Source: Alphaproteobacteria bacterium
GTDB taxonomy: Bacteria > Pseudomonadota > Alphaproteobacteria > RF32 > CAG-239
DNA: 48,530 bases
Assembly: GCA_045111335.1 (NCBI GenBank)
Contig: JBGUGE010000038.1
Location: forward strand, 1 to 48,530
Direction: 5' to 3'
In this document: positions 1-16,564 of the stretch, one piece after another
Layout of the letters: every line of letters starts with the position of its first letter
How positions within the stretch are numbered: the first letter of the stretch is position 1
Made by a program: the position numbers and the translations under genes
The notes under the pieces: model-generated
Told to the model about the DNA's origin: nothing
Seen by the model: only the letters and a program-made list of their open reading frames with translations
The model's database searches: none

Positions 1-1523
1 TCATCGCCGGTCAACGTTTTAATGGTAGAACCGCTGACATTCACTTTAGCATCGGTTTTGGCGCCGAGCCCGTAGAAAAACAACGCATGAGAGTCTAATT
101 CTCCGGTGGAAATATCGGTGGTAGCTTCGGCGTTTGCAGATACATCAACCGAGTTTTTCGCATCAATAGCGGCGTTGGTCAGCATAACGGCTGACGACGC
201 ATTTGCTCCGTCCATATAGGAATAAGTCTCGTCACTGAAGTATTGTTTCACCATCAAATATGATGAAAAAGGCACATCCGCCGGCAGTTCATCCCCAGCA
301 TCAAGAGCAATCAGTATTTTGGTTAATATATCTACACCTAAAGCGCTCAACCATTTTTCCCAAATCGGGTCCAAAAGTTGGATATACGTTTTGGTTTTGT
401 TTGAAGCATCGGCGGTAATGGCAATCTTTTCCGCCCTAACGACACTGTCTTCAACGGTGACTGTTGCGATTGCCTGCGGCGCACTGCCTCTAAAACTGTC
501 CGGAATTTTATAGCCGGTCGTTTCGTCTTTTTTATCCCCGTTATTATTGTTGTTATTATTATTTTCATTATATTCTTTGATGGTATTGGCGGTAACTTCC
601 TTAACCGTCTCAACTTTAGCCTCAATGCTGACTTCTTTGGCTCCCAAATCGGCTTTCTTGACATTTACCGTTGCGTTAACGGCTTTGGAATCCGTTGTAC
701 CGGCCTTGCCCTGCGCCACAATTTTAACCTTGCCGTCAGAAAGAGTAAACGAGTTGGCATTGGTAATATTGCTTGAAACCAAACTGTCAAACACGGCTTT
801 GGCGTTGTCTTTGTTTACCTTATTCTGAATGTCGGCACCGGCAATAATCCCCGCACGATTGCCTTCTTTGCCTTCAATCTTAATGCTTTTGCCGTAGAGT
901 TCGACATCTCCTTTAGACATGATTTTACCGTTGACGGTAATTGTGCCGGCAGAAGATGACAAGAGTTCTTTGTATTTGTCCGTACCTACTTCATAATTGT
1001 TCAAACCGCTACCGTCGTAGGCTGTCTTCATAGCGTTATATTGGTCCGAACCCGGTGTTGCCATAGTCAAGGCGCCGACATTCAAAACACCGCTTGCCCC
1101 AACCACTATGCCGTTCGGCGAAACAAAAATCGCATGTCCGTTATAAAAAGCATCACCCCTAACCGTGTTAACTATACCGTTAATGTTAACCTGGTTATCC
1201 ACCATATTAACGAATTTACCATAATCCTGCCCGCCTTTTGTAAATTGCAAATTCGCCACATCGCCTTCGTCAAGCGTAAAATCCGTATATTGCCGGAAAC
1301 CGGTATCGCCGGAAATTTTGGCTGCCTCAATGTTATAAACGCCGTTATTGCCGTTAACATTCGTGATGGAGGTTGCGGCATAAACCGGTGTTACATTCAG
1401 CAACATCATGCAATAAGCGGTAACAAATGACACCACCTTACGGAATAATGACGGCTCTTTGAATATGATTTCCTGTGATTTGGCAATAGTGATTTTTTTC
1501 TTGTTTTGGGCGGATTTCGGCAT
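1..1523 (-). CDS. TpsA exoprotein, leukotoxin LktA/filamentous haemagglutinin-like (5' part; runs off the left edge)
   Basis: Manual translation from ATG 1523 (RBS AAGGA): MPKSAQNKKK...FVTAYCMMLLNVTPVYA (extended signal peptide), then ...YTDFTLDEGDVANL...VNINGIVNT...HAIFVSPNGIVVGASGVLNVGAL, a TPS secretion domain. Absent from the ORF track, consistent with no stop inside the window; divergent from a TpsB gene. Confidence 0.85.
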   Translation of the reverse strand, partial: MPKSAQNKKKITIAKSQEIIFKEPSLFRKVVSFVTAYCMMLLNVTPVYAATSITNVNGNNGVYNIEAAKISGDTGFRQYTDFTLDEGDVANLQFTKGGQDYGKFVNMVDNQVNINGIVNTVRGDAFYNGHAIFVSPNGIVVGASGVLNVGALTMATPGSDQYNAMKTAYDGSGLNNYEVGTDKYKELLSSSAGTITVNGKIMSKGDVELYGKSIKIEGKEGNRAGIIAGADIQNKVNKDNAKAVFDSLVSSNITNANSFTLSDGKVKIVAQGKAGTTDSKAVNATVNVKKADLGAKEVSIEAKVETVKEVTANTIKEYNENNNNNNNNGDKKDETTGYKIPDSFRGSAPQAIATVTVEDSVVRAEKIAITADASNKTKTYIQLLDPIWEKWLSALGVDILTKILIALDAGDELPADVPFSSYLMVKQYFSDETYSYMDGANASSAVMLTNAAIDAKNSVDVSANAEATTDISTGELDSHALFFYGLGAKTDAKVNVSGSTIKTLTGD

Positions 1524-1739
1524 GTATTTTATCCTTAACGGTTATGGGTTTATCTTAACACGGCACTGATTGAAAATTATATTTATCTTTCAAATCAACA
1601 AAAGCGTTGACAGTGTACGTTGTTTTCAGCAATTTTTCAAGTATTATTAACGTTTTTTCATATTTTTTTAATTTTTGTTGAAATCCGCAAAATTTGTCGC
1701 TATCATCGGACATCATTTGAACTGTATCGGATTACAAGT

Positions 1740-3503
1740 ATGAAAAAAATTCTTCTTCTCTCGACAACCGGCTTTTTGTCGGTATTTGTGGTACATTCGG
1801 CGGCAACGGCGCAAGTTCCGGCGGCCAATGTAATTCCGCAACTCGGCACCATTCAACAACAAGATTTGGACAGTGCCAAACGCATAGAAATGGAAAGACA
1901 GGGTCTGCGCGATTATCAAAATCGCCAACTTGATGCCGAGCAGCAAACGAAAAAATCAACAACTAAACGCCCTAAAGCAACCGAACGCGCCAAACCGTCG
2001 GAATATAAGACCAAAGGCGTTTATATTGAAAGAATCGAAGTGCCGGCCAGTGATATTTTAACTCCGGAAGAAATTGCCGCAGTCACTGCCGATTATGAGC
2101 AAACCAACCTGACAATGAACGATATCAATGAGTTGGTCGAGCGCATTAACGAATTGTATCTCAATAAGGGCTTTGTGACCGCCCGGGCATATTTGCCGGA
2201 GCAAACTATTGAAAACGGCCTTTTAAAAATCGACACTCTCGAAGGTAAAGTCGGTAATGTAACGGTAGAAGGTAACCGCTGGACCAAGGAATCTCATATT
2301 AAAGACCGTTTGGATATGAATGAAGGCGAGATTTTCAATATTCAAAAATTGGAAGAAAATATGCTGATTTATAATCGCTACAACGATAATATCATGATTA
2401 AAGGCGATTTAACCGCCGGCGAAAAAAACGGAACCACCGACATCAAGGTCAAAGCCGACGAAAAAGTCCCGTATCACCTGATTGCGGTTGCCGACAACGC
2501 CGGCCGAAAAACCATCGGTAAAAACCGCGCCGGACTGATTGCCCAGCATGACAGTCTGTTCGGCTATCGTGATAAACTTTCGGCCGGTATTTATGCCAAT
2601 CGCTATTCGCAAACGCCGTTTATTGACTATAACATTCCGGTCAACAGATACGACGGTCGCTTAGGTATGTCGTTTTCACACAACGAGGCGGAAATCGGCC
2701 ACGGCGCTTATAAAGATTTCAATATTGAAAGTCGCTCGCAGAATTATTCGGTTTACTACACTCATCCGATTATTCGCGAATTGCAAAAAGAATTGAACGG
2801 CACAACCTCGTTTACCTACAAGCGTGCGGTTACCAGTTTTGACGGCGAAGATTTGTATGAAGATAAAATACCGGAACTCAAGGGAGGCCTTAACTTCCGC
2901 TACAACACCGAACGCGGTATTTGGTATTTGGCACAAAGCGTTTCGTACGCCGCACCATGGATTCAAAGCCGTATAGATTATTGGAAGTTTGAGGGCAGCG
3001 TCACCCGTTTGCACGACTTCAGCCACCGTGTTTTAGGATATTTCCACGCCAATTATCAATTTATTCCGCAAAAAATAATTCCGGTAGCCGACCAAATGGC
3101 CGCTGGTGGTTTCGGCTCGGTACGCGGCTATTCGCAAGGTTTATTGACCGCTAAATCCGGATATATGGCAAGTGCCGAAATCTATTTTCCGATTGCGCCG
3201 GAAGAATTTTATATCAACTGCAAAACGTATCGCACCGACGAATACGTCCGTCCGTTTGTGTTTACCGATTACGCGACACTTTATCCGTATAAAGGCGCGG
3301 GTGCCGGTGCGGAAGGTTTCAGCAACAGCGACATTTTGTTCTCGGCCGGTGCCGGTTTGCGCATTCAGTTACCATACGATATTGTGCTGAAAGCGGCCTA
3401 TGGTGTGCCGTTAAGACATAATCGTTACGAAACGCACAACGGCGGCGCTTGGAGTTTGGAACTCAGCTTTGCTCCGGATTTTAACAAGTTTTTTAAGAAC
3501 TAA
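1740..3503 (+). CDS. TpsB (ShlB/FhaC/HecB family) outer-membrane transporter
   Basis: Signal peptide MKKILLL...ATA; POTRA motif YLNKGFVTARAYLPEQTI; VRGY loop-6 motif (GSVRGYSQG); beta-barrel C-terminus. Start moved to ATG 1740. Confidence 0.93.
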   Translation: MKKILLLSTTGFLSVFVVHSAATAQVPAANVIPQLGTIQQQDLDSAKRIEMERQGLRDYQNRQLDAEQQTKKSTTKRPKATERAKPSEYKTKGVYIERIEVPASDILTPEEIAAVTADYEQTNLTMNDINELVERINELYLNKGFVTARAYLPEQTIENGLLKIDTLEGKVGNVTVEGNRWTKESHIKDRLDMNEGEIFNIQKLEENMLIYNRYNDNIMIKGDLTAGEKNGTTDIKVKADEKVPYHLIAVADNAGRKTIGKNRAGLIAQHDSLFGYRDKLSAGIYANRYSQTPFIDYNIPVNRYDGRLGMSFSHNEAEIGHGAYKDFNIESRSQNYSVYYTHPIIRELQKELNGTTSFTYKRAVTSFDGEDLYEDKIPELKGGLNFRYNTERGIWYLAQSVSYAAPWIQSRIDYWKFEGSVTRLHDFSHRVLGYFHANYQFIPQKIIPVADQMAAGGFGSVRGYSQGLLTAKSGYMASAEIYFPIAPEEFYINCKTYRTDEYVRPFVFTDYATLYPYKGAGAGAEGFSNSDILFSAGAGLRIQLPYDIVLKAAYGVPLRHNRYETHNGGAWSLELSFAPDFNKFFKN

Positions 3504-3569: not shown

Positions 3570-3671
3570 ACGCTTTATAATTAACTGTTGTCTCAGTGCT
3601 TTTCATTGTATATATTAAATTGTTTATTTGAACAAAAACAACCATAAGAATATATAATCAAAGACACTGGT

Positions 3672-3704
3672 ACGTCAAAAACTGTCGTAATATACTCTTA
3701 TAAT
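3672..3704 (+). promoter_or_regulatory. WYL (DriD/PafBC-type) operator-promoter, copy 1
   Basis: ACGTCAAAAACTGTCGT-N10-TATAAT, near-identical to 12271-12303. Confidence 0.7.
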
Positions 3705-3725
3705 ATAACAAAACTTCGCTGTTCC

Positions 3726-4013: not shown

Positions 4014-4475
4014 ATGGATTATAAAGAAATTATACCTTTTAAGGCGGTGCGCAAATTTGATGAAATGTGTTTGCATAATGAGTATTTGCATCAAAACAAA
4101 GATTTTCAACAGCAGATTTTATCTTGGGCGGCGGATACGCTTGCCGAAGCAAGAGAACACTGGGGTGATATTCATGCGACAACGATTGATGCAGTAATTA
4201 AAACACATCATAGAGAGAAAGCCCATAAAGGTGCTGTTGTTCGTGATAAAAAGTATGCGCAATTCAGAGAGAAATTCGCAGAAATTCAAAAAGAAAAATA
4301 TAAAGAAGCGATACAAGTCGGTATTAAGCTGACGGCAAACAGTTTTGTGGAATGGTTCTTAGCAAATAAAGCAAATGAAATGCAAATACCTTATGTGGAA
4401 CAGAATCAGAAAAATAAATTAAGACAGTTGGCACAACAAAATAATCGCGAATTTAAAAAGCTTTTGCTTGGCTAA
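4014..4475 (+). CDS. Hypothetical protein upstream of the effector (possible regulator or accessory factor)
   Basis: RBS AAGGAG; basic helical protein; C-terminal half paralogous to 10042-10302 (KLTANxFxxWFL...IPYxExN...LA..NNREFK). Confidence 0.8.
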   Translation: MDYKEIIPFKAVRKFDEMCLHNEYLHQNKDFQQQILSWAADTLAEAREHWGDIHATTIDAVIKTHHREKAHKGAVVRDKKYAQFREKFAEIQKEKYKEAIQVGIKLTANSFVEWFLANKANEMQIPYVEQNQKNKLRQLAQQNNREFKKLLLG

Positions 4476-4575
4476 AGTTACAATGTTAGCAAGCTATAGG
4501 GCATATACAAGCCGTTTTACTTCTGCTATAGTTTTAATCTGAATATAGACTTAAACTTTTTAACAGGAGATAAAA

Positions 4576-5676
4576 ATGGATATTTGGGATGAAATAAAAA
4601 AATTAACCGGATATCAATCCGGCAACGGCGGGGTGGATAGCTACGGGGTTGACCACAGCGGATTTTCAACCCGTGACGAGTTGGAATATCAAAGCGCGCG
4701 GTTGGCAAGAGAAAATCAACTGGCGGAAGGTTTTGCTAAGCAAGGAATTGCCGAAGAAAACTATCCGCAATACGGAACTAATTTTTGGGGTGGCTCGCCG
4801 GAAAACAACTATGGCTTCGGCACTTCAAACATCAAGCAAAATATCGAAAATGTAACAAATCGGCTTAATAACAACACAAATAACGGGCAGGTCTTTGCAA
4901 ACTCTGATTATACAGTCAACACCGAAAGCTTAGTCGGCAAACCAAGCAGTTATTTTCAAAATAATAGTGCAAGCAATACTTTGGGAGGCAATGCAAGTGG
5001 CGCACTGAATCAAAATGGTAGCGGTAACAGTATCAACTATGATAATTATGCAATGCGACAGGACTTAGAAAATAATATCAAACGAGAACAGGAAAGAGCG
5101 CAGCAACAAAGCTTAATACCTCCTTCTAACAATTCTCAGATAACGCCTATTCCTTCAGGAAAACCACTAACTTCGCAAGAAGCGTCCTATATGTTCACAC
5201 CGACACACCCTGATTATGGCCAAATAGGTTCATTGGAATTTGATGGGCAAAATTTGGTTTGGTTGCAAAATGGTCAACCGGTAAAGTATTATCCGGCACA
5301 ATCCGGTCATAATGATTATCAAAGCGCTAAATATACCAATGTCTCTAATGAGGGGCCAATACCGGAAGGAGATTATTTACTAGCACAAGGAAGCGGACAA
5401 GATTATAATAATTTGTCATGGCGAGAAAAAAATGGATTGTATAACGGAATAAGGTGGTTTGAATTGCCGGACGGTTGGGGAAAATCTCGTATTCCTATTC
5501 AACCATTACCTGATACCAACACTTTCGGGCGACATAGTATGTATGTGCACGGAGGTGCAGTTCCGGGTTCTGCCGGTTGTATTGATTTAACTTACAGAAA
5601 CGATGATTTCTATAACGACTGGCTAAAATATAACGGAAATCTTCCGCTTAAGGTAAAATACCCAAAAGGTTGGTAA
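4576..5676 (+). CDS. Polymorphic effector with C-terminal Tlde1/DUF2778 (L,D-transpeptidase-fold) domain
   Basis: RBS AGGAG; N/Q-rich linker; C-terminus LEFDG...AQSG...EGPIPEGDY...WG..RIPIQP...GRHSMYVHGGAVPGSAGCIDL with the HxG...SxGC catalytic motif. Confidence 0.8.
   Translation: MDIWDEIKKLTGYQSGNGGVDSYGVDHSGFSTRDELEYQSARLARENQLAEGFAKQGIAEENYPQYGTNFWGGSPENNYGFGTSNIKQNIENVTNRLNNNTNNGQVFANSDYTVNTESLVGKPSSYFQNNSASNTLGGNASGALNQNGSGNSINYDNYAMRQDLENNIKREQERAQQQSLIPPSNNSQITPIPSGKPLTSQEASYMFTPTHPDYGQIGSLEFDGQNLVWLQNGQPVKYYPAQSGHNDYQSAKYTNVSNEGPIPEGDYLLAQGSGQDYNNLSWREKNGLYNGIRWFELPDGWGKSRIPIQPLPDTNTFGRHSMYVHGGAVPGSAGCIDLTYRNDDFYNDWLKYNGNLPLKVKYPKGW
4918..4958 (+). repeat. Linker repeat L1 (41 bp identical to 6151-6191)
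   Basis: AACACCGAAAGCTTAGTCGGCAAACCAAGCAGTTATTTTCA in both places, same reading frame (NTESLVGKPSSYFQ). Confidence 0.95.
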
Positions 5677-5677
5677 C

Positions 5678-5710
5678 AAAAAGGGTAAGGAAAAATTTCC
5701 TTGCCTTTTT
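5678..5710 (+). terminator. Hairpin with overlapping putative -35 (TTGCCT); second copy at 9590-9618
   Basis: AAAAAGGGTAAGGAAA-aa-TTTCCTTGCCTTTTT; related AAAAGGCGAGGAAAATTTCCTTGCCTTTT at 9590. Confidence 0.6.
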
Positions 5711-5755
5711 TTGTTATTTTGATTTAATATATAAAGAATACAACCGGAGGTGACT

Positions 5756-6106
5756 ATGGAAAAAGTAATCAAAAAACATTTAAGTTATGTTCCTTATATT
5801 GTCTTTGCATTAATAACATTGTTATATGTTAGAATTATCGTATCATTATATCGTAGTATTGAAGCGGCAAGAGATGGCGGATTTGAAAAATTATTTGAAG
5901 CTGATTTTCCTATTTGGTATTATAAATCTGCAGATAATTTGATTTTGTATGATAAAATATTAATATTATTTTTTATTTTAATGTACTTTTTATCAGTATT
6001 TATCAGAAAGAAATATATTTTATCATTATTTATACTACTGTTACCCTTGATTTTTATGTTTTGTGATTGGTTATATTTAAGGTATACAATTACATATAAA
6101 TTATAA
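5756..6106 (+). CDS. Small membrane protein, candidate cognate immunity
   Basis: RBS GGAGG; about three hydrophobic segments; directly after the effector. Confidence 0.7.
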   Translation: MEKVIKKHLSYVPYIVFALITLLYVRIIVSLYRSIEAARDGGFEKLFEADFPIWYYKSADNLILYDKILILFFILMYFLSVFIRKKYILSLFILLLPLIFMFCDWLYLRYTITYKL

Positions 6107-6120
6107 CAAACAGCCCTCAG

Positions 6121-6921
6121 ATTCAGATAGAAACAGCTGATTACACGCTTAACACCGAAAGCTTAGTCGGCAAACCAAGCAGTTATTTTCAGAATAGTAA
6201 CACAACCAATACTTTGGGAACAAATCAGAGTTTTAATACAACGCCGGCAATACAAAATCAAACACCTGCACAATTACCGAATAATAATATTCAACAGTTG
6301 CGCATGCCGATGGGTTCTGAGCAACAAATAACCATGCCGAGTTATGAATTACAACAAAAAATACAACAGCCAAGTACTTGGGATAGAGTCAGAAATGCCG
6401 CCAATAATTTTGCGGATATTACTAAAACTGCAACAGTAGGTTACGCAGATGGGGCAACTTTAGGTAATTTTGATGAAGGTATGGGAGTAGCAACGGCGGC
6501 GGTTACATTTAATCCGAACAACTATTACCTTGGACGTGATGCCACGAGACAATTGCAAAAAGAACTGCAAGCAAAACATCCTTATGTTTACGGTGGTGCG
6601 GAATTCGTGGGAGCAATGACAACACCAATGCATTTGGTAAAAGGGGAAAATTTCAAACAGAAAGCGTTTAATGCCTTTACCGATACAATAAATGCTTCTG
6701 CCGGATATGCCGAAAATTGGAACGATTTTGGGACTAATCTGGCGGTAAACGGAATTGCTAATATAATTGGGTTAACTGCAGAACAATTGCCATTATGGAG
6801 AGCATCGGCAAGACCTCTTGTGAAGTTGGGTAAGAAATTTATCAAGCAAGGAATAAATTCTTCTGCTGACAAAGTTAAAAATATGTATTATAAGGAAGAA
6901 GATGAAGAAAAATACTATTAA
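6121..6921 (+). pseudogene. Orphan effector C-terminal cassette (no ATG or RBS; begins in linker L1)
   Basis: Frame open from 6100 without an upstream ATG; contains L1 and L2 then a distinct tip (GYADGATLGNFDEG...KHPYVYGGAEFVG...EEKYY). Confidence 0.7.
6280..6342 (+). repeat. Linker repeat L2 (second copy 10643-10705)
   Basis: NNNIQQLRMPMGSEQQITMPS versus NNSIPQLRMPAGSEQQITMPS; CAACAAATAACCATGCCGAGT identical. Confidence 0.9.
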
Positions 6922-6949
6922 GAATAAAACGTAACAAAGAGAGCAGAAT

Positions 6950-7294
6950 ATGGAAAAAGAGGATAAAAAAGAAATTATAAAAAATAATATTTTTAAGTGT
7001 ATCGATCTCATACTCAATTTATTAATTGCATTTGGAATCTTTATAATAATTGTATTTCATATAATTGGTCCTTTTTTTCCTATTCTGTTCTTATTCGATT
7101 TTTGTTTTGTAGTCGGGTATCCGCTGTTTTTGCGATATGTATTAAAAAAGAAATGGTTTGAGTGCACAAAGGATTACTATCTTAAAATAAAATATATTTT
7201 GCTTCCGTGGTTTATAATGGAACTCGTAGTATTGTTATATTATCACAAAGCAACATATTTTATAATTAAAACCGTTATGGAAAACAGCAACTGA
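6950..7294 (+). CDS. Membrane immunity-like protein, tandem copy 1
   Basis: 114 aa; PFFPxLFLFD...GYP...LKKxWFECTK...LLYYHKAT...MENSN shared with copies 2 and 3. Confidence 0.8.
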   Translation: MEKEDKKEIIKNNIFKCIDLILNLLIAFGIFIIIVFHIIGPFFPILFLFDFCFVVGYPLFLRYVLKKKWFECTKDYYLKIKYILLPWFIMELVVLLYYHKATYFIIKTVMENSN

Positions 7295-7370
7295 CAAACT
7301 GAAAAATATGTATTATGATGAAGACGAGGAAAAATATCACTATTAGCAAAACATAACAAAGGGACAGAAC

Positions 7371-7715
7371 ATGGGGAAAGAGGATATAATCAAAGAAATA
7401 AATGAGTTAACCTTAAAAACAATAAATGCTATTCTTTCTATATTCTATATATTTGGTTTATTTGCTATTTTAGCATTTCATAAAATAGTGCCTTTTTTCC
7501 CTGTTCTGTTCTTGTTTGATTTTTGTTTTATAATCGGATATCCTCTTTTTTTACACTATGTGTTAAAAAAGAAATGGTTTGAGTGCACAAAAAACTATTA
7601 TCTTAAAATACGATATATTTTATTGCCTTATGTTATGATGGAACTTATAGTGTTGTTATATTATCATAAGGCAACTCTTTTTATCATTAAAACTATTATG
7701 GAAAACAGCAACTGA
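7371..7715 (+). CDS. Membrane immunity-like protein, tandem copy 2
   Basis: 114 aa paralogue with a divergent N-terminal helix. Confidence 0.8.
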   Translation: MGKEDIIKEINELTLKTINAILSIFYIFGLFAILAFHKIVPFFPVLFLFDFCFIIGYPLFLHYVLKKKWFECTKNYYLKIRYILLPYVMMELIVLLYYHKATLFIIKTIMENSN

Positions 7716-7798
7716 CAAACTGAAAAATACATTTTATAATGAAGATGAGGACGAGAAAAAATATCATTATTAGTAAAAAATAACATAAGGAACAGAAT

Positions 7799-8143
7799 AT
7801 GGAAAAAGATAGTATAATTACTTTAATGAAGAAAAGTTTATTAAAAATTATATATTGGACGGCATCTTTACTGATTTTTCTCAGCGCAATGATTATTCTT
7901 CAACTGCATTTAATTGTGCCTTTTTTTCCTGTTCTGTTCTTATTTGATTCATGTTTCTGGTTCGGGTATCCTATGTTCGTCGAACATATTTTAAAAAAAC
8001 GATGGTTTGAGTGTACAAAAAACGATTATTTAGCATTAAAGTACATTTTATTACCTTGGTTAATAATGGAAATTATAGTGTTGTTATATTATCATAAGGC
8101 AACTCTTTTTATCATTAAAACTATTATGGAAAACAGCAACTGA
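7799..8143 (+). CDS. Membrane immunity-like protein, tandem copy 3
   Basis: 114 aa paralogue. Confidence 0.8.
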   Translation: MEKDSIITLMKKSLLKIIYWTASLLIFLSAMIILQLHLIVPFFPVLFLFDSCFWFGYPMFVEHILKKRWFECTKNDYLALKYILLPWLIMEIIVLLYYHKATLFIIKTIMENSN

Positions 8144-8226
8144 CAAAATGAAAAATATGTATTATAAGGACGATGAGGATGAAGAAAGATATTACTGAAA
8201 ATAAAACATAATAGAGGGAACAGAAT

Positions 8227-8575
8227 ATGGAAAAAGAGGTTATAATTCAAAAAATAAAAGGATTGTCACTAAAACTAATTAATAATTTTTTGGCCTTTTT
8301 TATATGTTTTTGGCTCATTATTATTATTTTAAGATTACACTTCATGGTGTCTTTTTTTCCTGTTCTTATTTGATTTTTGTTTACTGGTTGGGTATCCACT
8401 GTTTTTGAGATATGTTCTAAAACGAAAGTGGTTTGAATGCACGAAAGATGATTACCTTTGCATAAAATACATTATGCTTCCATTGTTAATTATGGAATTA
8501 GTCGTTCTGTTCTGCTATCCTCAAGAGACAATTTTTGCAATTGACTTTTTAGCAGAAAGTGATTTCTTTAAATAA
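8227..8575 (+). pseudogene. Membrane immunity-like protein, tandem copy 4 (frameshifted)
   Basis: MEKEVII...FFPVL, then a 5-nt deletion (CCTGTTCTGTTCTT to CCTGTTCTT); the shifted frame continues LFDFCLLVGYPLFLRYVLKRKWFECTK...DFFK*. Confidence 0.85.
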
Positions 8576-8746
8576 GCCATATATGCGTTTTATGACCAAT
8601 TTGAAGCAAAATGTTAAACAATGTAAGGAATCCGCACAAAGTTTAACATTTTTTTGTTTGGGGTATTTTTTCTAATAACCCTGAAGAATGTGAAGAACTG
8701 TTGCCCGAGCAATATCGAAAAAAGAAAAGATATTGGTAAAAATTCA

Positions 8747-8782
8747 GAGCCGATTGACAATCGGCTCCTTTTATTATAGTAT
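8747..8782 (+). promoter_or_regulatory. Terminator hairpin containing a sigma70 promoter
   Basis: GAGCCGATTGACAATCGGCTC hairpin plus T tract; TTGACA(8754)-17 bp-TAGTAT(8777). Confidence 0.65.
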
Positions 8783-8816
8783 GAATAAAATTTAAAATAA
8801 AACCATAGGTAGCAAA

Positions 8817-9329
8817 ATGAAAAAGATAGAAAAATCAAAACTCATCAAAACCATTCTGTTGTTAATTTCAACAATTCCTTTCCCTTTGTTTTTCGCTATT
8901 CTTTTATATGTTGTTCCGGCTTTATATGTAAGTTTTATCGTTCCTTATTTAATCTGGAAAATTTGGTTTGGTAAAGATAGTAAGAAAATAAAAAAAATTA
9001 CTCTGACTTGGAAATTGCCGATTATAATTTTCTTGGCATGGGCAATGTTTGAAATAGAAATGTTGTTGATTTTTCTTGTTCCGTTCACGTTATCATTTAT
9101 TTGGAAACTAATTCTCTTCTTTATTTCACTATTACTGTTCCGGTGCATAACCTATGCAATGATGATTTTTATATTGCAATACGATATTTTGGTGCCATAT
9201 CGAAAATTAATATATGCTTTTATATTGGCTTATTGTATTGCCGTTGCAGATTTCTGGTATTTATCTCTAAATGCACCGGATACAGATGACTACAGCATTT
9301 CGTTTTATGAATATATGTCGTCAGAATAG
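8817..9329 (+). CDS. Multi-pass membrane protein, orphan immunity candidate
   Basis: 170 aa, about five hydrophobic segments, AT-rich. Confidence 0.7.
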   Translation: MKKIEKSKLIKTILLLISTIPFPLFFAILLYVVPALYVSFIVPYLIWKIWFGKDSKKIKKITLTWKLPIIIFLAWAMFEIEMLLIFLVPFTLSFIWKLILFFISLLLFRCITYAMMIFILQYDILVPYRKLIYAFILAYCIAVADFWYLSLNAPDTDDYSISFYEYMSSE

Positions 9330-9368
9330 GAAGATTTATTGGCAGTAAATATCCGGAGGAAGATTGTG

Positions 9369-9581
9369 ATGAGCTTGTTCAAAGATATATTAAAAAGAAT
9401 TGGTAAATACATTGGGTATGTGCTACTTTTTATTTGTTTTTCAACAATTACAGGTGTTGTTGCCGGAATTACTTGGTATGCATTGACTGAACATAGTTAT
9501 AAAGAGTGCGATAACCAGTTTATATATGGTTGTATGTCTGCAGGACTTAGTGAAGAAGCCTGCAAAAGTAGAGTGTATTGA
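9369..9581 (+). CDS. Small membrane protein with Cys-rich tail, orphan immunity candidate
   Basis: RBS GGAGGA before ATG 9369; one TM segment, then C-x6-C-x9-C. Confidence 0.6.
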   Translation: MSLFKDILKRIGKYIGYVLLFICFSTITGVVAGITWYALTEHSYKECDNQFIYGCMSAGLSEEACKSRVY

Positions 9582-9667
9582 TAATAAACAAAAGGCGAGG
9601 AAAATTTCCTTGCCTTTTATTTTTGTTGATATACTATCATAATGGTTACAACCTTTAGGATAACAAC

Positions 9668-10012
9668 ATGTTTCAAGACAAGGTAAAGCAAGCGATATCA
9701 GATACTTTCAAACTCTTGTGGTCGTTCAAATGGTATGTTGGATTGTATCTGCTGTATTATATTATAAGTATTATATCATTATTTGATATACCGACAGCAG
9801 ATGATAAAATATTCCATGCAGAAGCAACTTCGCAAATCTGGTCATATACTAATCAAGAGGTTTATATCGGCAGTCTAAGGTTAGAAATTATAATACTGAG
9901 TTTACTTTTTCTGTTGGGGACGAGTAATATGCGTAATCACCCGAAGATAGCAAAATTTATTTTTATTCTACCATGGATTTATGCAACAATTCGTTTGATA
10001 AAACTTTTTTAA
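9668..10012 (+). CDS. Membrane protein, orphan immunity candidate
   Basis: RBS AGGA; three hydrophobic segments; preceded by the same hairpin as 5756. Confidence 0.7.
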   Translation: MFQDKVKQAISDTFKLLWSFKWYVGLYLLYYIISIISLFDIPTADDKIFHAEATSQIWSYTNQEVYIGSLRLEIIILSLLFLLGTSNMRNHPKIAKFIFILPWIYATIRLIKLF

Positions 10013-10110
10013 AGGTATCCGGTTTCGCCTTTGATATATGATTGCCGGGTATATGGCACGTTTCGGAAGATTTTTGCAAGTGTAGCGAAATTATATCGCA
10101 AGTCCAAAGA
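10008..10110 (+). repeat. Right-end repeat family (copies at 10008, about 11560 and 36429)
   Basis: TTTAAAGGTATCCGGTTTCGCCTTTG (26 bp) identical at 10008 and 36429; GTATATGGCACGTTT; TAGCGAAATTATATCG present in all three copies. Confidence 0.85.
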
Positions 10111-10302
10111 GAAAAGTTTGATGAAGCATTAAAAGCTGGTAATAAATTAACGGCTAACGGATTTGCTCATTGGTTTTTAAAGAATAGAGAAAATGATATG
10201 AAAATACCTTATGAGGAAGGTAATAAACTGCATAAACTTATACGTTTGGCAGAGGCAAATAATCGAGAGTTTAAAACACCCATAGAATGCAAAGGCGGAT
10301 AG
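10042..10302 (+). pseudogene. 5'-truncated paralogue of 4014-4475 fused to the repeat
   Basis: QREKFDEALKAGNKLTANGFAHWFL...NNREFK aligns to the C-terminal half of 4014-4475. Confidence 0.75.
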
Positions 10303-10387
10303 TTGCAAACTATACGGGATTGTCAAAGTTTTTCTTATAGATAAAGTAAAACTGTAAATTTCTAATTTTAGCTGAAAGGAAGAAACA

Positions 10388-11068
10388 ATGACGGAATTTA
10401 TAAGAGAATTGATGTTTGGTAAACATCCGGTGCACCGAACAAATCCCAAACCCGGACAAAGCGAATGGTACTATTTGGACCCGCGCGGAACAGATAGATT
10501 TGCTGATATGAAGGAAATCGATGTACCGAATGAGAATTAGCCAAATCCATATGCTAACGAAATACAAAACTATCTGTATGAAAATGACGAGTATAACTAT
10601 AAACAACTTTATGGTAATACTCCACCACCGGTACAAACGCAGAATAATAGTATTCCGCAATTACGCATGCCTGCGGGTTCTGAACAACAAATAACCATGC
10701 CGAGTAATAATTTGCAAAAATACAACAACAATTTTGCAAATTTTGTAAGCAATACTTATGACAACGTAAATAATGCTTATAATAGTGTTAAGCAAGATTA
10801 TTTCGGACAACGAAATTATCAGAATAGGTATAAACAAGGTTGTACGCCTTCTAATATCGCATATAATACAATATCTAATTATCAAATTTCTCCTAACCAG
10901 AAATTGGTAGAAAATGGTAATATAGTTTCAAATTATATTATGAAAAAGGTTTTATCTGCAATACCTGTAGTGGGTACGTATGTAAATGGAATTGTAGCCG
11001 GAGATAAAGTAGCTAATGGATTAACTAATATCTACAATGCTATGGATGAGGCTGATTGTTTTAAATAA
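10388..11068 (+). pseudogene. Second full-length-type effector interrupted by one in-frame TAG (10538-10540)
   Basis: RBS AAGGA and ATG 10388 in frame with track ORF 10667-11068: MTEFIRELMFG...VPNEN*PNPYANE...L2...IPVVGTYVNGIVAG. Confidence 0.75.
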
Positions 11069-11124
11069 AACTTGATTCTAACAAACAATCTGCATATAGT
11101 AAATCTAAATAAAGGGGATAACAA

Positions 11125-11523
11125 ATGAATGAAAAAACAAAAGAAATATGCATATTAGGTGGTTTATATTTTGTGATTAGCTATATCATTGATTTGGTGG
11201 GCGGTTTTGCAAGCAATCTATCAACGATTTTTTTTATTTTGTTTGTTATCCTCTTTTTTATGATTTTATTTGGCAAGAAAGTTGCCTTTCTGCAAAAATT
11301 TACGGATAAGTTTCCCAAGTTCTCGGTGTATTTATATTATATTGGATTTATAGGATATATTTTACTTGTTTTTAATTTATTGGTTTTAGGTCCGACGGAA
11401 TTTATTTCTTTGAGTGAAGTTATGCAAAAATATATTGCATGGGGTGTTGCCACTATAAATATCATCGGAGTCTTGTTGGCGTTAATTTTAGCAACTCGTA
11501 ATGTATTTTTTAAGAAAAAGTGA
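11125..11523 (+). CDS. Four-TM membrane protein, candidate cognate immunity
   Basis: RBS AAGGGG; own promoter TTGATT(11072)-17-TATAGT(11095). Confidence 0.75.
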   Translation: MNEKTKEICILGGLYFVISYIIDLVGGFASNLSTIFFILFVILFFMILFGKKVAFLQKFTDKFPKFSVYLYYIGFIGYILLVFNLLVLGPTEFISLSEVMQKYIAWGVATINIIGVLLALILATRNVFFKKK

Positions 11524-12134: not shown

Positions 12135-12270
12135 ATGGTCGTGTATATGGCACGTTTTTAAGGAAAGCCCCGGTTCCGAGCTCCCTTGGTCATAAAATGC
12201 GAACTCCCAGTCCGCTTGGTGTTTTTGAAAGAAAGCAACTATAAGTACTTGTATAGTCAACATGCCTAAC

Positions 12271-12303
12271 ACGTCAAAAACTGTCGCAATTTGCTCTTAT
12301 AAT
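12271..12303 (+). promoter_or_regulatory. WYL operator-promoter, copy 2 (points at the DnaB-like gene)
   Basis: ACGTCAAAAACTGTCGC-N10-TATAAT. Confidence 0.7.
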
Positions 12304-12343
12304 ATAACCATTTTGAACCAATTGTTTATTATGGGAGCAGAAA

Positions 12344-13306
12344 ATGACTGAGAATACCGTTGAGAATAATTTATCGGAAATTTTAAACGACTATCTGCAT
12401 GAACTTGATTTTAGGGTTCAACATCCCGATGCATTGATGGGAATTGCGACCGGATTTGACAACCTTGATAAGAGATTGGACGGTTTGTGCAATGGTGAGG
12501 TTATTTTAATCGGTGGTCGCCCGGCGATGGGGAAAACGGCTTTGGCCGCCAATTTGACTTATAATATTGCCGCCGGTTTTTATCTCAAACATCAGCAAAA
12601 TCCGTTAGATGATAAATGCGTTGTATATATCGGCTTGGAGCTTTCGCCGAAATTGTTTGCCAACAGGCTTCTTTCTTTACAGACAGCAATACCGACGTAT
12701 AAATTACGTTGTGGTGAGGATTTGGGAGAAAATTTTGATAAGATTTGCAAAGCCGAACGCACTTTTAGGGAATTACCGATTTATTATCTGGGCGATATAT
12801 TTGAGGTCGATGACATTGAAAAAGAGTTACAAAAGGTAGAAAAACAGGTCGGTTGCGTGATTATCGACTATCTGCAACTCTTGGGAGAGGAATATCAGAC
12901 AAAAGAAGATTACAGCTTAATCGTGTTACAACTTAAATCATTGGCTGTTAAACTCGGCATACCGATTGTGGTGCTTTCGCAGTTGAAACGTGAGTTGGAA
13001 AGCCGAGCCGATAAACACCCGCTTATGAGTGATATTCGCGGGATTATGCGCAATCAAAACGCGGCTGATAATGTCATATTTTTGTATCGCGAAAGCTTTT
13101 ATATTCAATTTGCGGAGCCAAGAACACGCAAGAAAGAATCCGATGATCAATATCAAAAACGTGTGCGGCAGTGGCAAAAACGTTGCGACGAAACAGAAAA
13201 CATTTGTGAAATTATCATCGCCCGCAATTCCGGTGGCTTTTGCGGCATAATTAAACTGCATTTTGATTGGGCCACCGGACTGTTTTGGGAGGAGAAAAGA
13301 GAATGA
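12344..13306 (+). CDS. DnaB-like helicase C-terminal domain protein (no N-terminal domain, degenerate motifs)
   Basis: TGFDNLD, Walker A GRPAMGKT, IIDYLQL, LSQLKR; SDLRESGSIEQDAD reads SDIRGIMRNQNAAD and KxRxG reads RNSGG. Confidence 0.85.
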   Translation: MTENTVENNLSEILNDYLHELDFRVQHPDALMGIATGFDNLDKRLDGLCNGEVILIGGRPAMGKTALAANLTYNIAAGFYLKHQQNPLDDKCVVYIGLELSPKLFANRLLSLQTAIPTYKLRCGEDLGENFDKICKAERTFRELPIYYLGDIFEVDDIEKELQKVEKQVGCVIIDYLQLLGEEYQTKEDYSLIVLQLKSLAVKLGIPIVVLSQLKRELESRADKHPLMSDIRGIMRNQNAADNVIFLYRESFYIQFAEPRTRKKESDDQYQKRVRQWQKRCDETENICEIIIARNSGGFCGIIKLHFDWATGLFWEEKRE

Positions 13307-13375: not shown

Positions 13376-15286
13376 TCAATTATCATTATTACTTATAAGA
13401 CGAACTACATTTTCTCTCAGAATTTCTAACATTTCTCTGCCATGTTTTTTGTAGGCATTTTCTTTCCAATCTGCATTAGTAATTGTTTCATTAGACATTA
13501 TTCTTAATTTAAGGCTACCATTTTTTATTGTATCACCAAAACTCCCTTTTTTAGATTCAGGAGATAAGTTGGAAAACTTAGAATTTGTCCTACGTTGAAC
13601 TAAACACAAGTTTCCAAAATAATCCAATCCATCCTTGGGTGACCAACTTTCGAATGTTCCTTCTGACGGATGTTGCGGATACCAGTGCTCTACTGAATTC
13701 CTATACTCGAATGTAAAATTCTTATAATTTTCTTCCGCTTTTTTATACTTATTCCAAAGAAGATAATCCAGATAATTAAAGACAATATGAGGAGTATCAA
13801 CACCAGCATTAAAAGCTTCGGCCTTCAAATAATCTTCATCGCTTAAGTTACTATTATTATTGAAATAATCTTGATAAACAGCTTTTGCTATGTATTTTTC
13901 CAAAAAAGTCCCTACATCTACAATATTATTATTGTTATTGTACAACCATATCAATAATTCAGTAATCCAATGCATAATTTTGGGCGAGGTATAAGAAACA
14001 CGTAGACAAGCTTGAAGCATTAAGATTTGCTTATGTCTCTCGTCATATGTTTTTTCTCTTTCCCATAGATTTGCAAAACATGTGTTTTTGTAATACGCTT
14101 TCTTCTTGCTTTGTTGCCCACTGGAACATAAGCATTTTAAGCTCCAAACACCTTCTTCATCCGTACCGGAAGTTTCTCTTTTTATAATGTATTTATCAAA
14201 TAAATACCTGCAAGTCAGTAAGTAATTAATGAATTTCAGTGAAAAAACACGTTTTTGACCATTATAATATTTTTTTATTACAGCTTCAAATGTCTCAAAA
14301 AGCTTTTTATCGTCTAATAGACGCTTTGTATCACCATGAGATTTTATTTCTTGATTAAGAAAAACTTTTAAAACATGCATTAAAAAGTATGGCGCCTCAA
14401 TAATACTCCTAAATCTTTGACTACCATCATCATCTTCGCCGTAATTGTTTGCTTCTTGCAATTTTTGTATACTATCAAAATTTATAATATCTAATATTTT
14501 CTTTTTTTCTTTACCTGATTCCGCTCTTATAAATTTATTATACTCGTTTTTCGGCTTTTCAGTCCATGTTTCCCCAAAAATTGAAGCTCTGTACTCAGGT
14601 GTAAAATGCATTTGAATGTACCCATTCATATTAACACATGCATCCCAAATTAAAGCAAAAATATCTTTTTCATTATCATTTAAGCAATCCATTAAATGGG
14701 CTTTTAAAATATCTTGTTGTTCCAATTGTTCGCCACGCGTATTCATTATCTCAAAATAACGATTCAAATCAGTATGAGGAGGAACCTTTATTCTATATAT
14801 TTTTACTTTAGACAACTTTTCTTTAAATTTTTCCTTATCGTGTTTTTTAAAATATTCACTAATAATATCCCATCCTTTTATTATTCCCTCGTCTTTTTCT
14901 TTTAATAAATTATCTTGTGCCCCGATTGTATCCAACGTATTATCTGAGGTGGGGCGATATGCAAAGGTCAAATATTCACAATTTTTCCAATCAAGCAAAT
15001 ATTTTAGTACTAAAAATAAAGTTGTTAAACGTTGTTGACCGTCTATAACTTCATATTCATCATCTAATTTATAAACAATCAACGAGCCCAAACAATATGA
15101 TGAATCTGTATCGTCGGCGATTCCATCAATATCTTCCATAAGCTGATTAATTTCTTTGTCTTCCCAAGCAAATGCTCTTTGGTATAAAGGGATAATATAT
15201 CTGACATTTTCTGAAAATAGATTGTTTATATTATTAGGAGTATAAACTTTTAATTCTTCAATAAATGCTTCTCCGGTTTGCTTCAT
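13376..15286 (-). CDS. GmrSD-like DUF262 + DUF1524 (HNH) nuclease
   Basis: IPLYQRAFAW, VIDGQQRLTT, FEIMNTRG; C-terminal SVEHWYPQ...GNLCLV...NSKFSN. Confidence 0.9.
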   Translation of the reverse strand: MKQTGEAFIEELKVYTPNNINNLFSENVRYIIPLYQRAFAWEDKEINQLMEDIDGIADDTDSSYCLGSLIVYKLDDEYEVIDGQQRLTTLFLVLKYLLDWKNCEYLTFAYRPTSDNTLDTIGAQDNLLKEKDEGIIKGWDIISEYFKKHDKEKFKEKLSKVKIYRIKVPPHTDLNRYFEIMNTRGEQLEQQDILKAHLMDCLNDNEKDIFALIWDACVNMNGYIQMHFTPEYRASIFGETWTEKPKNEYNKFIRAESGKEKKKILDIINFDSIQKLQEANNYGEDDDGSQRFRSIIEAPYFLMHVLKVFLNQEIKSHGDTKRLLDDKKLFETFEAVIKKYYNGQKRVFSLKFINYLLTCRYLFDKYIIKRETSGTDEEGVWSLKCLCSSGQQSKKKAYYKNTCFANLWEREKTYDERHKQILMLQACLRVSYTSPKIMHWITELLIWLYNNNNNIVDVGTFLEKYIAKAVYQDYFNNNSNLSDEDYLKAEAFNAGVDTPHIVFNYLDYLLWNKYKKAEENYKNFTFEYRNSVEHWYPQHPSEGTFESWSPKDGLDYFGNLCLVQRRTNSKFSNLSPESKKGSFGDTIKNGSLKLRIMSNETITNADWKENAYKKHGREMLEILRENVVRLISNNDN

Positions 15287-16564
15287 TTAATTTATCTCCT
15301 TTATTTGTGTATATAATGTCTCCCACTTTTCTCGCTGAGCTTTACCTGAATCCCGTTGGATATTAACTACTAAATTTGCAATTTCTTTATGATTTAAGGC
15401 ATTCCTTATTATCGAAAAAATAGGAATATTATTGGTATACCTGCTTTCTGAACTATGGCACGTAGTATAAGCATTGATGCTTGAAAACGGTAATACTTCT
15501 AAATCTACACGTAGCATAAAAGCCCAAGAAAATAGATTTTTTATCGCTTGCTTATCCCAATTATGAAATTTATCATAATAACAGAGTACAGCACATTCAA
15601 ATAAGGTTTTAGCATGCATAAAACCAGTAGAATTTTTATATGGATCAATTACTTTTGATTTATCAACTCCTATCAATTGATAAGCCTCATATTTTACGTA
15701 CTCTAAAAGTGGTACATAATAATCTACCATTTCAAAAAAGTGTTTCCCAGCAATGAAAGGCTCGGTTATTTGGAATATATTCATTGATTTTGCAACTCTT
15801 TTTGCATAAGTATACGAGCTATTTATGGAAACACCTTTATAATAATCAATTTCTTTTGCCGTAAAAGCAGAAGCTTTCTCTTTTCTTGACCATTTTAATA
15901 TGGGAAATAAATAATTTTCAAAAAGATTACGTATATCAGCAGGTTTAATTGCTTCCCATTTTCTTACAGCATTACGCATCTCAAAAGGTTCCTGATTTAT
16001 TTCTCTTAAGTGATAGGCTTTTAATAAATCATGCGGATTAAGCAACTTTCCGCGAGTGTTTTGAGAATCAAACAACTGAAATGCTTCCGTTTCTTTATCA
16101 ACAACTAAAACAACAAATTCAAAAATATTTGTAAAAGCGTTAAGGAGTAAATCCTTCTTATCTTCATGGGTAGAAACCCAACTACGAATATAGTGATAAT
16201 TTTGATAGATGTTTGATTTACTGATATCAGATTCACATTTTTCTTCTAACAAAGGATATGATTGGTTATTATCCAGACAATACAACAATAAAGATAAAGA
16301 AATACATCTCTGTTGTCCATCTACTATATCGTATCTCCCTCTGTTATTGTGCAAAATAACTGAACCTATCCTATATTTAAAATCTTTATATTGAAAACTA
16401 TCCACCAAAGCTTGTTCAATATCTTCCAATAGCGTTGATACATTTTTTATTGTCCATTTGTAAGGACGTTGATAATTTGGTATGTGCAAAGATTTTTGCA
16501 ACAAATCAAAAACACTCAGAATCTGAGCATTTTCTTGGATTTGTTTCTTAATCTCCTCGCTCAT
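15287..16564 (-). CDS. DUF262 (GmrS-like) protein without an HNH domain
   Basis: IPNYQRPYKW, IVDGQQRC, FDSQNTRG; its stop abuts the next ATG (TAAATG). Confidence 0.88.
   Translation of the reverse strand: MSEEIKKQIQENAQILSVFDLLQKSLHIPNYQRPYKWTIKNVSTLLEDIEQALVDSFQYKDFKYRIGSVILHNNRGRYDIVDGQQRCISLSLLLYCLDNNQSYPLLEEKCESDISKSNIYQNYHYIRSWVSTHEDKKDLLLNAFTNIFEFVVLVVDKETEAFQLFDSQNTRGKLLNPHDLLKAYHLREINQEPFEMRNAVRKWEAIKPADIRNLFENYLFPILKWSRKEKASAFTAKEIDYYKGVSINSSYTYAKRVAKSMNIFQITEPFIAGKHFFEMVDYYVPLLEYVKYEAYQLIGVDKSKVIDPYKNSTGFMHAKTLFECAVLCYYDKFHNWDKQAIKNLFSWAFMLRVDLEVLPFSSINAYTTCHSSESRYTNNIPIFSIIRNALNHKEIANLVVNIQRDSGKAQREKWETLYTQIKEIN

Follow-up and report, generated by a model that had tools for sequence, protein, structure and literature searches.

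Positions 4014-11523 of a 48,530-nucleotide (nt) stretch of alphaproteobacterial DNA (the window: contig JBGUGE010000038.1, here C38) probably form an interbacterial polymorphic toxin-immunity island in which two N-terminal domains, N1 and N2, serve as the modules that specify delivery. This estimate leaves aside the type IV secretion system (T4SS) as a delivery route, which we weigh separately. Judged by sequence comparison, N1 appears to be a new family, and the system around it appears to be of a polymorphic toxin kind that is already known. The genome that contains the window, from the order RF32, comprises 1.63 Mb at 92% completeness, and its relatives are uncultured Alphaproteobacteria of the gut and rumen. 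Other contigs of this genome are numbered C below, and related loci elsewhere are numbered L.

N1 is a constant N-terminal domain joined to diverse tips

The first effector gene of the locus (4576-5676) encodes 366 amino acids (aa), which begin with N1 (about 95 aa), continue through a low-complexity linker that carries a pre-tip motif, and end in a tip of the Tlde1/YkuD type. N1, the constant module of the family, occupies residues 1-95 (4576-4860). The pre-tip motif, SDYTVNTESLVGKPSSYFQNN, lies at 4904-4986 and is 88% identical to 6137-6219 (repeat D8), and residues 240-342 (5293-5601) carry the Pfam matches to a Tlde1/YkuD-like L,D-transpeptidase-fold domain. The match to PF10908 (Tlde1; E = 3e-6, 28.1 bits) falls below the family cut-off of 30.1 bits, and the match to PF03734 (YkuD; 23.7 bits) lies above its cut-off of 23.4. 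The motif HGG..PGSAGCID has an invariant Cys and a nearly invariant His among 24 homologs, and this catalytic His...Cys motif together with the domain match places the tip among Tlde1/YkuD-fold toxins. The effector has no hydrophobic segment, and the frame upstream of its ATG is open for only four codons, so a missed signal peptide is excluded, in agreement with the initial annotation of this DNA.

We identified 369 proteins of 201-641 aa that share N1 at E ≤ 0.01 among 454 candidates (query residues 1-130), and an exhaustive HMMER search with the whole effector returned 1345 proteins at E ≤ 0.001. N1 stands at the very start of its matches in the HMMER search, and the Tlde1 domain occurs there behind other N termini as well. 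An alignment (A1) of 35 N1 sequences from several genera, 39-87% identical to that of the window, contains 17 invariant columns. The domain ends near residue 95, beyond which the sequences diverge into low-complexity linkers. The pre-tip motif is found in many family members, and a search of the window's own genome matched it at C38:6085-6234 and C13:119-286.

The tips were surveyed in the best 120 of the 369 N1 matches. N1 begins within the first 12 residues in 117 of these proteins, and the 101 tips of sufficient length fall into 15 sequence clusters. Pfam recognized SAA (19 proteins), GH108 (16), Tlde1 (12), PG_binding_3 (8), YkuD (3), Pesticin (2), PG_binding_1 (2), and VgrG3-C (VgrG3_C), SLT, and DUF637 (one each). 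Most of the recognized tips are predicted to act on peptidoglycan, the GH108, pesticin, SLT, and VgrG3 types as muramidases, with the SAA-like tips as the main exception. The initial annotation had anticipated homologs with a constant N terminus, variable tips, and small downstream genes, and the family has all three.

The commonest recognized tip is a bacterial homolog of serum amyloid A (Pfam SAA, best E = 1.2e-18), which also occurs on N2. Examples are P0009, P0018, C13:1-640 in the window's own genome, and L093:1501-2280. These tips are followed by small, Cys-containing proteins with one transmembrane (TM) segment that belong to the 80-aa family of the window.

N1 matched none of the known delivery domains in the membership tests that we ran. 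It had no match in Pfam (with the window protein), NCBIfam, PHROGs, a profile search of PDB sequences, or the ESM Atlas, which bears out the earlier impression that this N terminus resembles no known delivery domain, and 35 N1 members had no Pfam match at E ≤ 1. The Pfam models for PAAR, Rhs, LXG, VENN-CdiA, and MafB (DUF1020) matched neither the window protein nor the 35 N1 segments (E ≤ 1), and the same delivery families were absent from the 120 full proteins (E ≤ 0.001) except for DUF637 in a single member. PF04233 (MuF) was not matched by N1 in the window protein, the 35 segments, or the 120 full proteins. Profile matches of N1 and of the accessory protein described below to PDB sequences were repeat-driven hits to PPR proteins or had E > 0.05 and were judged spurious. 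Word searches of the literature, which cannot find a family by its sequence, returned no description of N1.

Of 283 genomes of the order, 114 carry N1; among the high-quality ones the figure is 87 of 219. Seven of 24 genera are represented, and copy numbers reach 15 per genome. This distribution and copy number resemble those of effector repertoires and are unlike those of housekeeping genes. Among GTDB species representatives, N1 is found almost only in metagenome-assembled genomes of Alphaproteobacteria or unclassified Proteobacteria from the gut or rumen. Within the genus of the window, a hand count found N1- or N2-type toxins in 45 of 50 genomes, and the remaining five are fragmented or incomplete assemblies. 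The window's own genome has at least one further N1 copy. This gene, which carries an SAA-like tip, is cut by the start of contig C13, and after it come a homolog of the 80-aa gene of the window and then a remnant of a Tlde1 tip with a homolog of the window's 118-aa gene.

Tips are paired with small downstream genes and recur as orphan cassettes

Every gene between 4014 and 11523 lies on the + strand, and all parts of the layout proposed in the initial annotation are present in the order given there. The accessory gene, the two effectors, and the immunity candidates have ribosome-binding sites upstream. The internal repeats of the locus are 70-88% identical over 83-300 nt, and homologs of every part occur in the same order in other genomes; because of these two properties, the layout is far beyond chance. 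Downstream of the putatively expressed effector gene, the locus shows what appear to be silent tip-plus-immunity cassettes and surplus immunity genes.

A terminator-like hairpin (5678-5711, repeat D13) lies directly 3' of the effector stop codon, and a similar one is found at 9590-9618, 3' of the gene at 9339-9581. The hairpin is followed by the candidate immunity gene for the Tlde1 tip (5750-6106; 118 aa, three predicted TM segments) and by orphan tip 1 (6137-6921), a pre-tip motif plus a tip of unknown fold that has neither an N-terminal domain nor a credible start. The open reading frame (ORF) listed for this tip spans 6214-6921, homology to the pre-tip motif of the effector begins at 6137, and the frame is open only back to about 6100; it starts with the conserved motif ADYTLNTESLVGKPSSYFQN. 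Four membrane paralogs come next, three of them of 114 aa (6950-7294, 7371-7715, and 7799-8143) and a fourth split by a frameshift (8227-8575). They are followed by three orphan candidate immunity genes encoding 170 aa with four predicted TM segments (8817-9329), 80 aa with one (9339-9581), and 114 aa with two (9668-10012). The locus then continues with a 3' fragment of a second accessory gene (10042-10302), the N2-type effector (10388-11068), and the candidate immunity gene for the tip of the latter (11125-11523; 132 aa, four predicted TM segments).

The repeats tie these pieces to one another. The orphan cassettes share stretches of homology with the full effector gene (repeats D8, D6, and D3), and a 100-nt stretch is common to orphan tip 1 and orphan tip 2, the latter being the tip of the second effector. 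Each 114-aa paralog sits in a repeat unit of 421-428 nt (D1, D2, D3, and D5), and these units have kept the last codons of the tip at 6886, 7735, and 8163 (three copies of D3).

Both orphan tips are found elsewhere as parts of complete effectors. Orphan tip 1 is fused to N1 in L017, L023, L053, L063, and L082 and to N2 in L091, and the fusions of orphan tip 2 are with N1 in L024 and with N2 in L089 and L092. Each tip type has its own small membrane or lipoprotein gene downstream. The family of the 114-aa paralogs lies no more than 35 nt downstream of the orphan-1 tip in all seven other loci with this tip. The 118-aa family follows Tlde1-type tips in L010, L081, and contig C13, the 132-aa family lies directly 3' of the second tip in L024, L089, L090, and L092, and the 80-aa family is found behind SAA-like tips, as on C13. 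Homologs of the three orphan membrane genes (8817-10012) are likewise found downstream of N1 effectors in other loci. This covariation of tips and downstream genes, together with the fusions, is the standard signature of toxin-immunity cassettes.

A different arrangement was seen in other loci, where lipoprotein-like ORFs of about 150 aa (cluster c3) are convergent with the toxin gene and overlap or directly follow its 3' end. Such ORFs lie downstream of N1 genes in L029, L040, L041, L044, L065, L071, and L082, and clusters c14, c21, and c50 are further groups of this kind. As a candidate immunity layout, this arrangement differs from the same-strand membrane genes of the window.

Short, near-identical pieces of the locus, such as 5377-6180, are present in four other metagenome studies, and several of these contigs join the pre-tip motif to other sequence. 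We did not count these contigs as evidence for cassette exchange, as their joints have short sides, the likeness is 90%, and the contigs are metagenomic.

The accessory gene is linked to both effector classes but appears dispensable

The locus opens with an accessory gene (4014-4475; 153 aa) that has an AGGAG-type ribosome-binding site upstream. The 3' fragment at 10042-10302 covers positions 84-149 of the accessory model and is 71% identical to 4282-4458 (repeat D4). The accessory family comprises 256 homologs of about 153 aa, all from the same clade. The protein is basic (isoelectric point 9.2), and its AlphaFold2 model is all-helical, with one helix of 74 residues and a predicted local distance difference test (pLDDT) score of 88.8. 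It has no convincing match in Pfam, NCBIfam, or PHROGs, and Foldseek comparison of the model with the PDB returned nothing at E ≤ 0.001 (best E = 0.9), with no usable lead from the ESM Atlas.

Of the 37 full-length accessory genes in the genus, at least 26 have N1 (9 genes) or N2 (17 genes) no more than about 140 nt downstream, by hand count. The accessory gene is present in 30 of 38 N1-positive genomes of the genus versus 2 of 12 N1-negative genomes, and one of these two (G246) carries N2. In the reverse direction the association is looser. Among 71 N1 genes for which 700 nt or more of upstream sequence exist, 10 have the accessory gene directly upstream and 4 others its 3' fragment, and a genome with 11 N1 copies (G213) has no accessory gene. 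The gene is missing from 8 of the 38 N1-positive genomes and is not an obligate partner. Its distribution suggests that the accessory gene is linked to both effector classes but dispensable. We read it as a putative head-of-cassette gene, either adaptor or regulator, whose 3' part may travel with the effector.

N2 is a second, unrelated N-terminal class related to MuF toxins

The second effector (10388-11068) is a single frame broken by an in-frame TAG at 10538-10540 (E = 6.8e-43, one TAG), where relatives have a sense codon. Intact orthologs of 226-227 aa are found in L089 and L092, and the window copy is a pseudogene. The N2-type frame recognized in the initial annotation is real, and what has to be given up is its status as an intact gene. 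In this frame, N2 (10388-10639) leads through the shared pre-tip linker QLRMPAGSEQQITMPS to a tip of unknown fold. In 35 of the 50 genus genomes, ORFs of 200-450 aa open with the N2 start, MTEFIRELMFG...WYYLDPRG, and N2 is present in 10 of 49 sampled genomes of the order. This 50-residue start is not a chance ORF.

N2 can be aligned over about 75 residues with longer proteins, in which the MuF core (YYIWRT..D.KVR..H..REG.IF.W....G.PG..YNCRC) comes next. One of these is encoded in the window's own genome (C44:24480-25640; 386 aa) and matches Pfam Phage_Mu_F above the cut-off (E = 2.4e-10), with an additional weak Phage_lysozyme match below the family cut-off (E = 0.017). PF04233-bearing proteins and N2 have in common only the part that precedes the MuF core. 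The core itself is missing from the short N2 forms, and three intact N2 proteins had no PF04233 match at E ≤ 0.1. The earlier claim that the locus has no PAAR, Rhs, LXG, VENN, or MuF features is therefore right for N1, and for N2 it is right as far as Pfam matches go and wrong in that N2 is homologous to the N terminus of a Phage_Mu_F protein. Of 15 genomes of the genus, 7 have Phage_Mu_F and none was found to have Phage_portal, SPP1_portal, or Phage_capsid, other portal families not having been searched for. The 7 kb listed around the C44 MuF gene showed no phage head genes. Taken together, the alignments suggest that N2 is a shortened, derived relative of the MuF-toxin N terminus, outside the prophage context that defines MuF toxins.

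The two effectors had been described as members of one N-terminal class. Alignment of N1 with the N2/MuF N-terminal alignment by hhalign gave a probability of 0.06%, which indicates two unrelated classes, and a likeness seen by eye between DSYGVDHSGFST of N1 and WYYLDPRGAST of N2 was rejected by the same comparison. Linkers (QLRMPxGSEQQITMP), tips, immunity genes, and the accessory gene are nonetheless common to both classes.

Two other features of the genome may be recorded here. By eye, the MuF toxin gene on C44 lies, within C44:22822-26472, between an ORF resembling a TolC-type outer membrane protein and a convergent lipoprotein-like ORF. A 25-kb contig carries a small phage-like cluster (C7:13442-23721) with a weak Terminase_6N match (24.2 bits), and its other ORFs look, by size and sequence, like cell wall hydrolase, tail, or portal genes.

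Genomic setting of the locus

A 57-nt imperfect direct repeat (family D10) encloses the entire toxin locus, with its left copy at 3653-3709 and its right copy, 79% identical, at 12252-12308, just upstream of a helicase gene that has only a DnaB_C domain (12344-13306). Within the genome, the 18-nt core of the repeat is confined to these two sites and one weaker site on C74, and the related loci that we fetched do not contain it. The 57-nt repeat could be an insertion scar or a shared operator. There are no phage genes in the toxin locus, head genes included.

On the left, the locus adjoins a divergent two-partner pair. The region at 3-1523 (- strand) encodes the N terminus of a filamentous adhesin/leukotoxin-type TpsA (NCBIfam NF012204, E = 1.5e-43) and runs off the window, and 1620-3503 (+ strand) encodes a ShlB/FhaC-type TpsB with POTRA domains. 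On the right (13376-16564, - strand) are two adjacent GmrSD-type restriction genes, one with GmrSD_N and GmrSD_C and the other with GmrSD_N and DUF7834, in a low-GC stretch of about 30%. The toxin locus and the neighboring GmrSD genes together suggest a defense/offense island.

Candidate delivery machinery

TssC/VipB (sheath of the T6SS, or type VI secretion system), Peptidase_C39, TonB_C, Phage_sheath_1, and FlhA were not found in the window's own genome at its 92% completeness, and VirB4, VirD4 (C76, about 34.7-36.9 kb), and TolB (contig C18) are present. Of the 283 genomes of the order, 272 have VirB4, almost all of them with a single copy. The T4SS cluster of the window's genome is chromosomal and flanked by housekeeping genes (C76:116106-143409). 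It contains VirB3/VirB4 and several very large, secreted-looking proteins of 1389-1786 aa, and it is adjoined by genes that resemble, by size and order, a type II secretion system or type IV pilus cluster (C76:104463-114522). Although the genome is that of a Gram-negative bacterium and has TolB, a TonB C-terminal domain was not found in it.

Our tentative best guess is delivery through this single-copy core T4SS (VirB4/VirD4), because no other Sec-independent trans-envelope machine turned up among those we looked for. It is possible, though we regard it as somewhat doubtful, that toxins directed at the envelope are loaded onto the core T4SS of the order by N1, and perhaps also by N2, acting as a recognition module at the N terminus. 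We would rank the routes as T4SS, then Tol-dependent, bacteriocin-like entry after release, then a phage-like particle, with other routes for the remainder. Accessory/N2 loci lie about 28-33 kb from VirB4 in five genomes, which we did not take as linkage.

Discussion

We propose that N1 and N2 would carry a toxin that has no Sec signal out of the producer and into a target cell, where the recognized tips would act on the envelope of the rival. The products of the downstream genes would be immunity proteins facing the periplasm, and the pre-tip motif would be a recombination site for tip exchange. The trafficking role of N1 is one that we infer by analogy. The initial annotation had likewise posited an unclassified trafficking domain that defines a new effector family; the new family holds up, and the trafficking function is argued from analogy, with no linked secretion machinery and a structural model of low confidence.

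In its architecture, the locus appears to work like the MafABI systems, the orphan arrays of contact-dependent inhibition (CDI) and Rhs systems, and the X-Tfe/X-Tfi repertoires. A close parallel in layout is MafA-MafB-MafI of Neisseria, which also has an accessory gene, a toxin with a constant N terminus and a variable tip, an immunity gene, and silent tip-plus-immunity arrays that share a short region of homology with the expressed gene. MafB carries a signal peptide and DUF1020, and MafA is a lipoprotein. In contrast, the present effectors have no signal peptide, neither N1 nor the accessory protein has a Pfam match, and the accessory protein is basic and all-helical.

The T6SS effector Tlde1 (PF10908) belongs to the same L,D-transpeptidase-fold group as the tip of effector 1, with the His/Cys motif kept, but no T6SS sheath gene was found here, the N terminus is different, and the PF10908 match lies just under the curated cut-off. 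The X-Tfe/X-Tfi systems of Xanthomonadales offer a parallel for the T4SS route. They too have many envelope-directed effectors per genome that carry a conserved module about 100 residues long, with cognate immunity proteins that face the periplasm and a VirB/VirD4 T4SS in every producer, as described in the available portions of PMC6759196 and PMC8740702. The recognition domain of X-Tfe, XVIPCD, is C-terminal according to the available portions of PMC8262851 and PMC11253643, whereas N1 is N-terminal with no detected similarity to XVIPCD and the C termini are the variable part here. No XVIPCD family was among the Pfam matches of the 120 members, in a Pfam copy not verified to contain an XVIPCD model.

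Several observations weigh against the toxin-island interpretation and its delivery component. About half of the 120 surveyed tips have no Pfam match, and the gene calls in related loci are crude ORFs from our own script. One family member of 768 aa has a sub-threshold match to the PBECR2 nuclease (23.8 bits against a cut-off of 27.1), because of which a target confined to the envelope is not established. The AlphaFold2 model of N1 has a mean pLDDT of 53.8 and three helices at best, so nothing structural supports N1 as a docking domain. No secretion gene was a conserved neighbor in 80 loci. Two-partner secretion was considered as an export route and set aside, as the TpsB/TpsA pair lies beside the family in just one other locus (L009). 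The core T4SS is present in nearly all genomes, N1-positive and N1-negative alike, so its distribution is not discriminating, and to our knowledge, known T4SS signals are C-terminal or internal.

The low-confidence model of N1 would fit either folding induced by a partner or an unstructured translocation region like that of colicins, and the second possibility leads to the principal rival explanation. The proteins might be diffusible bacteriocins of the colicin M or pesticin kind, set free without a secretion system of their own, with N1 as a largely unstructured translocation/receptor module whose linear motifs would capture outer membrane and Tol proteins of the target and bring the enzyme into its periplasm. 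We consider this unlikely, although much about the proteins fits. Like these bacteriocins, they are small (about 230-500 aa), have no signal peptide and a poorly structured N-terminal region, and carry an enzyme for the periplasm of the target, in some cases a pesticin-like lysozyme or another muramidase; the candidate immunity proteins would be membrane-anchored or periplasmic, as in those systems. N1 has no confident fold, and its conserved Gly/aromatic motifs give way to linkers rich in Asn, Gly, Ser, Thr, and Pro. TolB is present in the genome, and the immunity genes of pesticin and colicin M are arranged convergently with the toxin gene, as are the lipoprotein-like ORFs (c3, c14, c21, and c50) at the toxin 3' end in many loci. 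However, TonB_C was not found in the genome, short Tol/Ton boxes being beyond the reach of a profile search, the loci showed no gene for lysis or release, and the profile search of PDB sequences, colicins included, found no colicin and no sequence similarity to these proteins. N1 is also strongly conserved over 95 residues across genera, and typical colicin translocation regions are not so conserved. Multicopy arrays of up to 15 copies with orphan cassettes are more typical of contact-dependent systems. A presumed likeness of the N1 motif NFWGG..ENNYGFG to the TolB box of colicin E9 was not used as evidence.

The remaining alternatives seem to us improbable to differing degrees. N1 might act as a pro-domain or in regulation, for instance by silencing the enzyme while it is in the cytoplasm or through binding to an assembly partner, and export would then depend on another element, such as the accessory protein or the linker. 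The lack of detectable similarity between N1 and delivery domains, its low-confidence fold, and the linkage of the accessory gene to two unrelated N-terminal classes would all agree with this improbable reading. Against it, delivery is said (by Zhang et al. in 2012) to be specified by the constant N-terminal part in every characterized polymorphic toxin family, and the accessory gene is absent from 8 of the 38 N1-positive genomes of the genus, including the one with 11 N1 copies. The available portion of PMC12226406 also assigns delivery to the constant N-terminal part. About as improbable is that N2, and by extension N1, targets toxins into an injecting capsid in the manner of MuF (SPP1 gp7-type) head proteins. 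A MuF polymorphic toxin family is on record in the available part of PMC5576092, Phage_Mu_F proteins of the same genomes share their first 75 or so residues with N2, and small putative immunity genes lie downstream of them too. The same part of PMC5576092 places 96% of muf genes in prophages or their remnants, beside portal genes, whereas the toxin locus and the surroundings of the C44 gene show no phage head genes, the three portal and capsid families searched are missing from the genus genomes sampled, and the window's own genome has just the one small phage-like contig with its weak terminase match. Furthermore, the short N2 forms have lost the MuF core, N1 is unrelated to N2, and the word "peptidoglycan" is absent from the available part of PMC5576092, whereas peptidoglycan-directed tips are common here. 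Least probable is that the loci are lysis cassettes of defective phages, endolysin plus holin, and not toxins. GH108 with PG_binding_3 is a muramidase combination typical of endolysins, and the downstream genes encode small membrane proteins, but Tlde1-type and SAA-like tips are not endolysin types, a single constant N terminus bears 15 unrelated tips, and orphan tips without a start, tandem arrays of membrane genes, lipoprotein-like partners in some loci, and the lack of phage genes in the locus all argue against such cassettes.

A polymorphic toxin-immunity island, the reading we favor, would raise the question of how Sec-independent cell wall toxins are delivered in a genome with no detectable T6SS, type III secretion system, contractile sheath gene, C39 exporter, or TonB. 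If N1 does load toxins onto the core T4SS, this would be a second, independently evolved T4SS effector system that kills bacteria and the first with an N-terminal signal, and the place of bacterial SAA-like domains among its commonest warheads would be a further surprise. The finding is of interest for work on antagonism between bacteria and on the microbiota of the rumen and gut, and it would introduce a new principle only if the delivery route proves unusual. In any case, the family constitutes a large, naturally shuffled library of putative envelope-directed toxin domains with cognate candidate immunity genes. Small-genome Alphaproteobacteria of this kind are common in rumen and gut metagenomes, and all records that we found are metagenome-assembled or uncultured. 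Because 45 of the 50 genomes of the genus carry N1 or N2, some in more than 10 copies, interbacterial antagonism seems central to the ecology of these bacteria.

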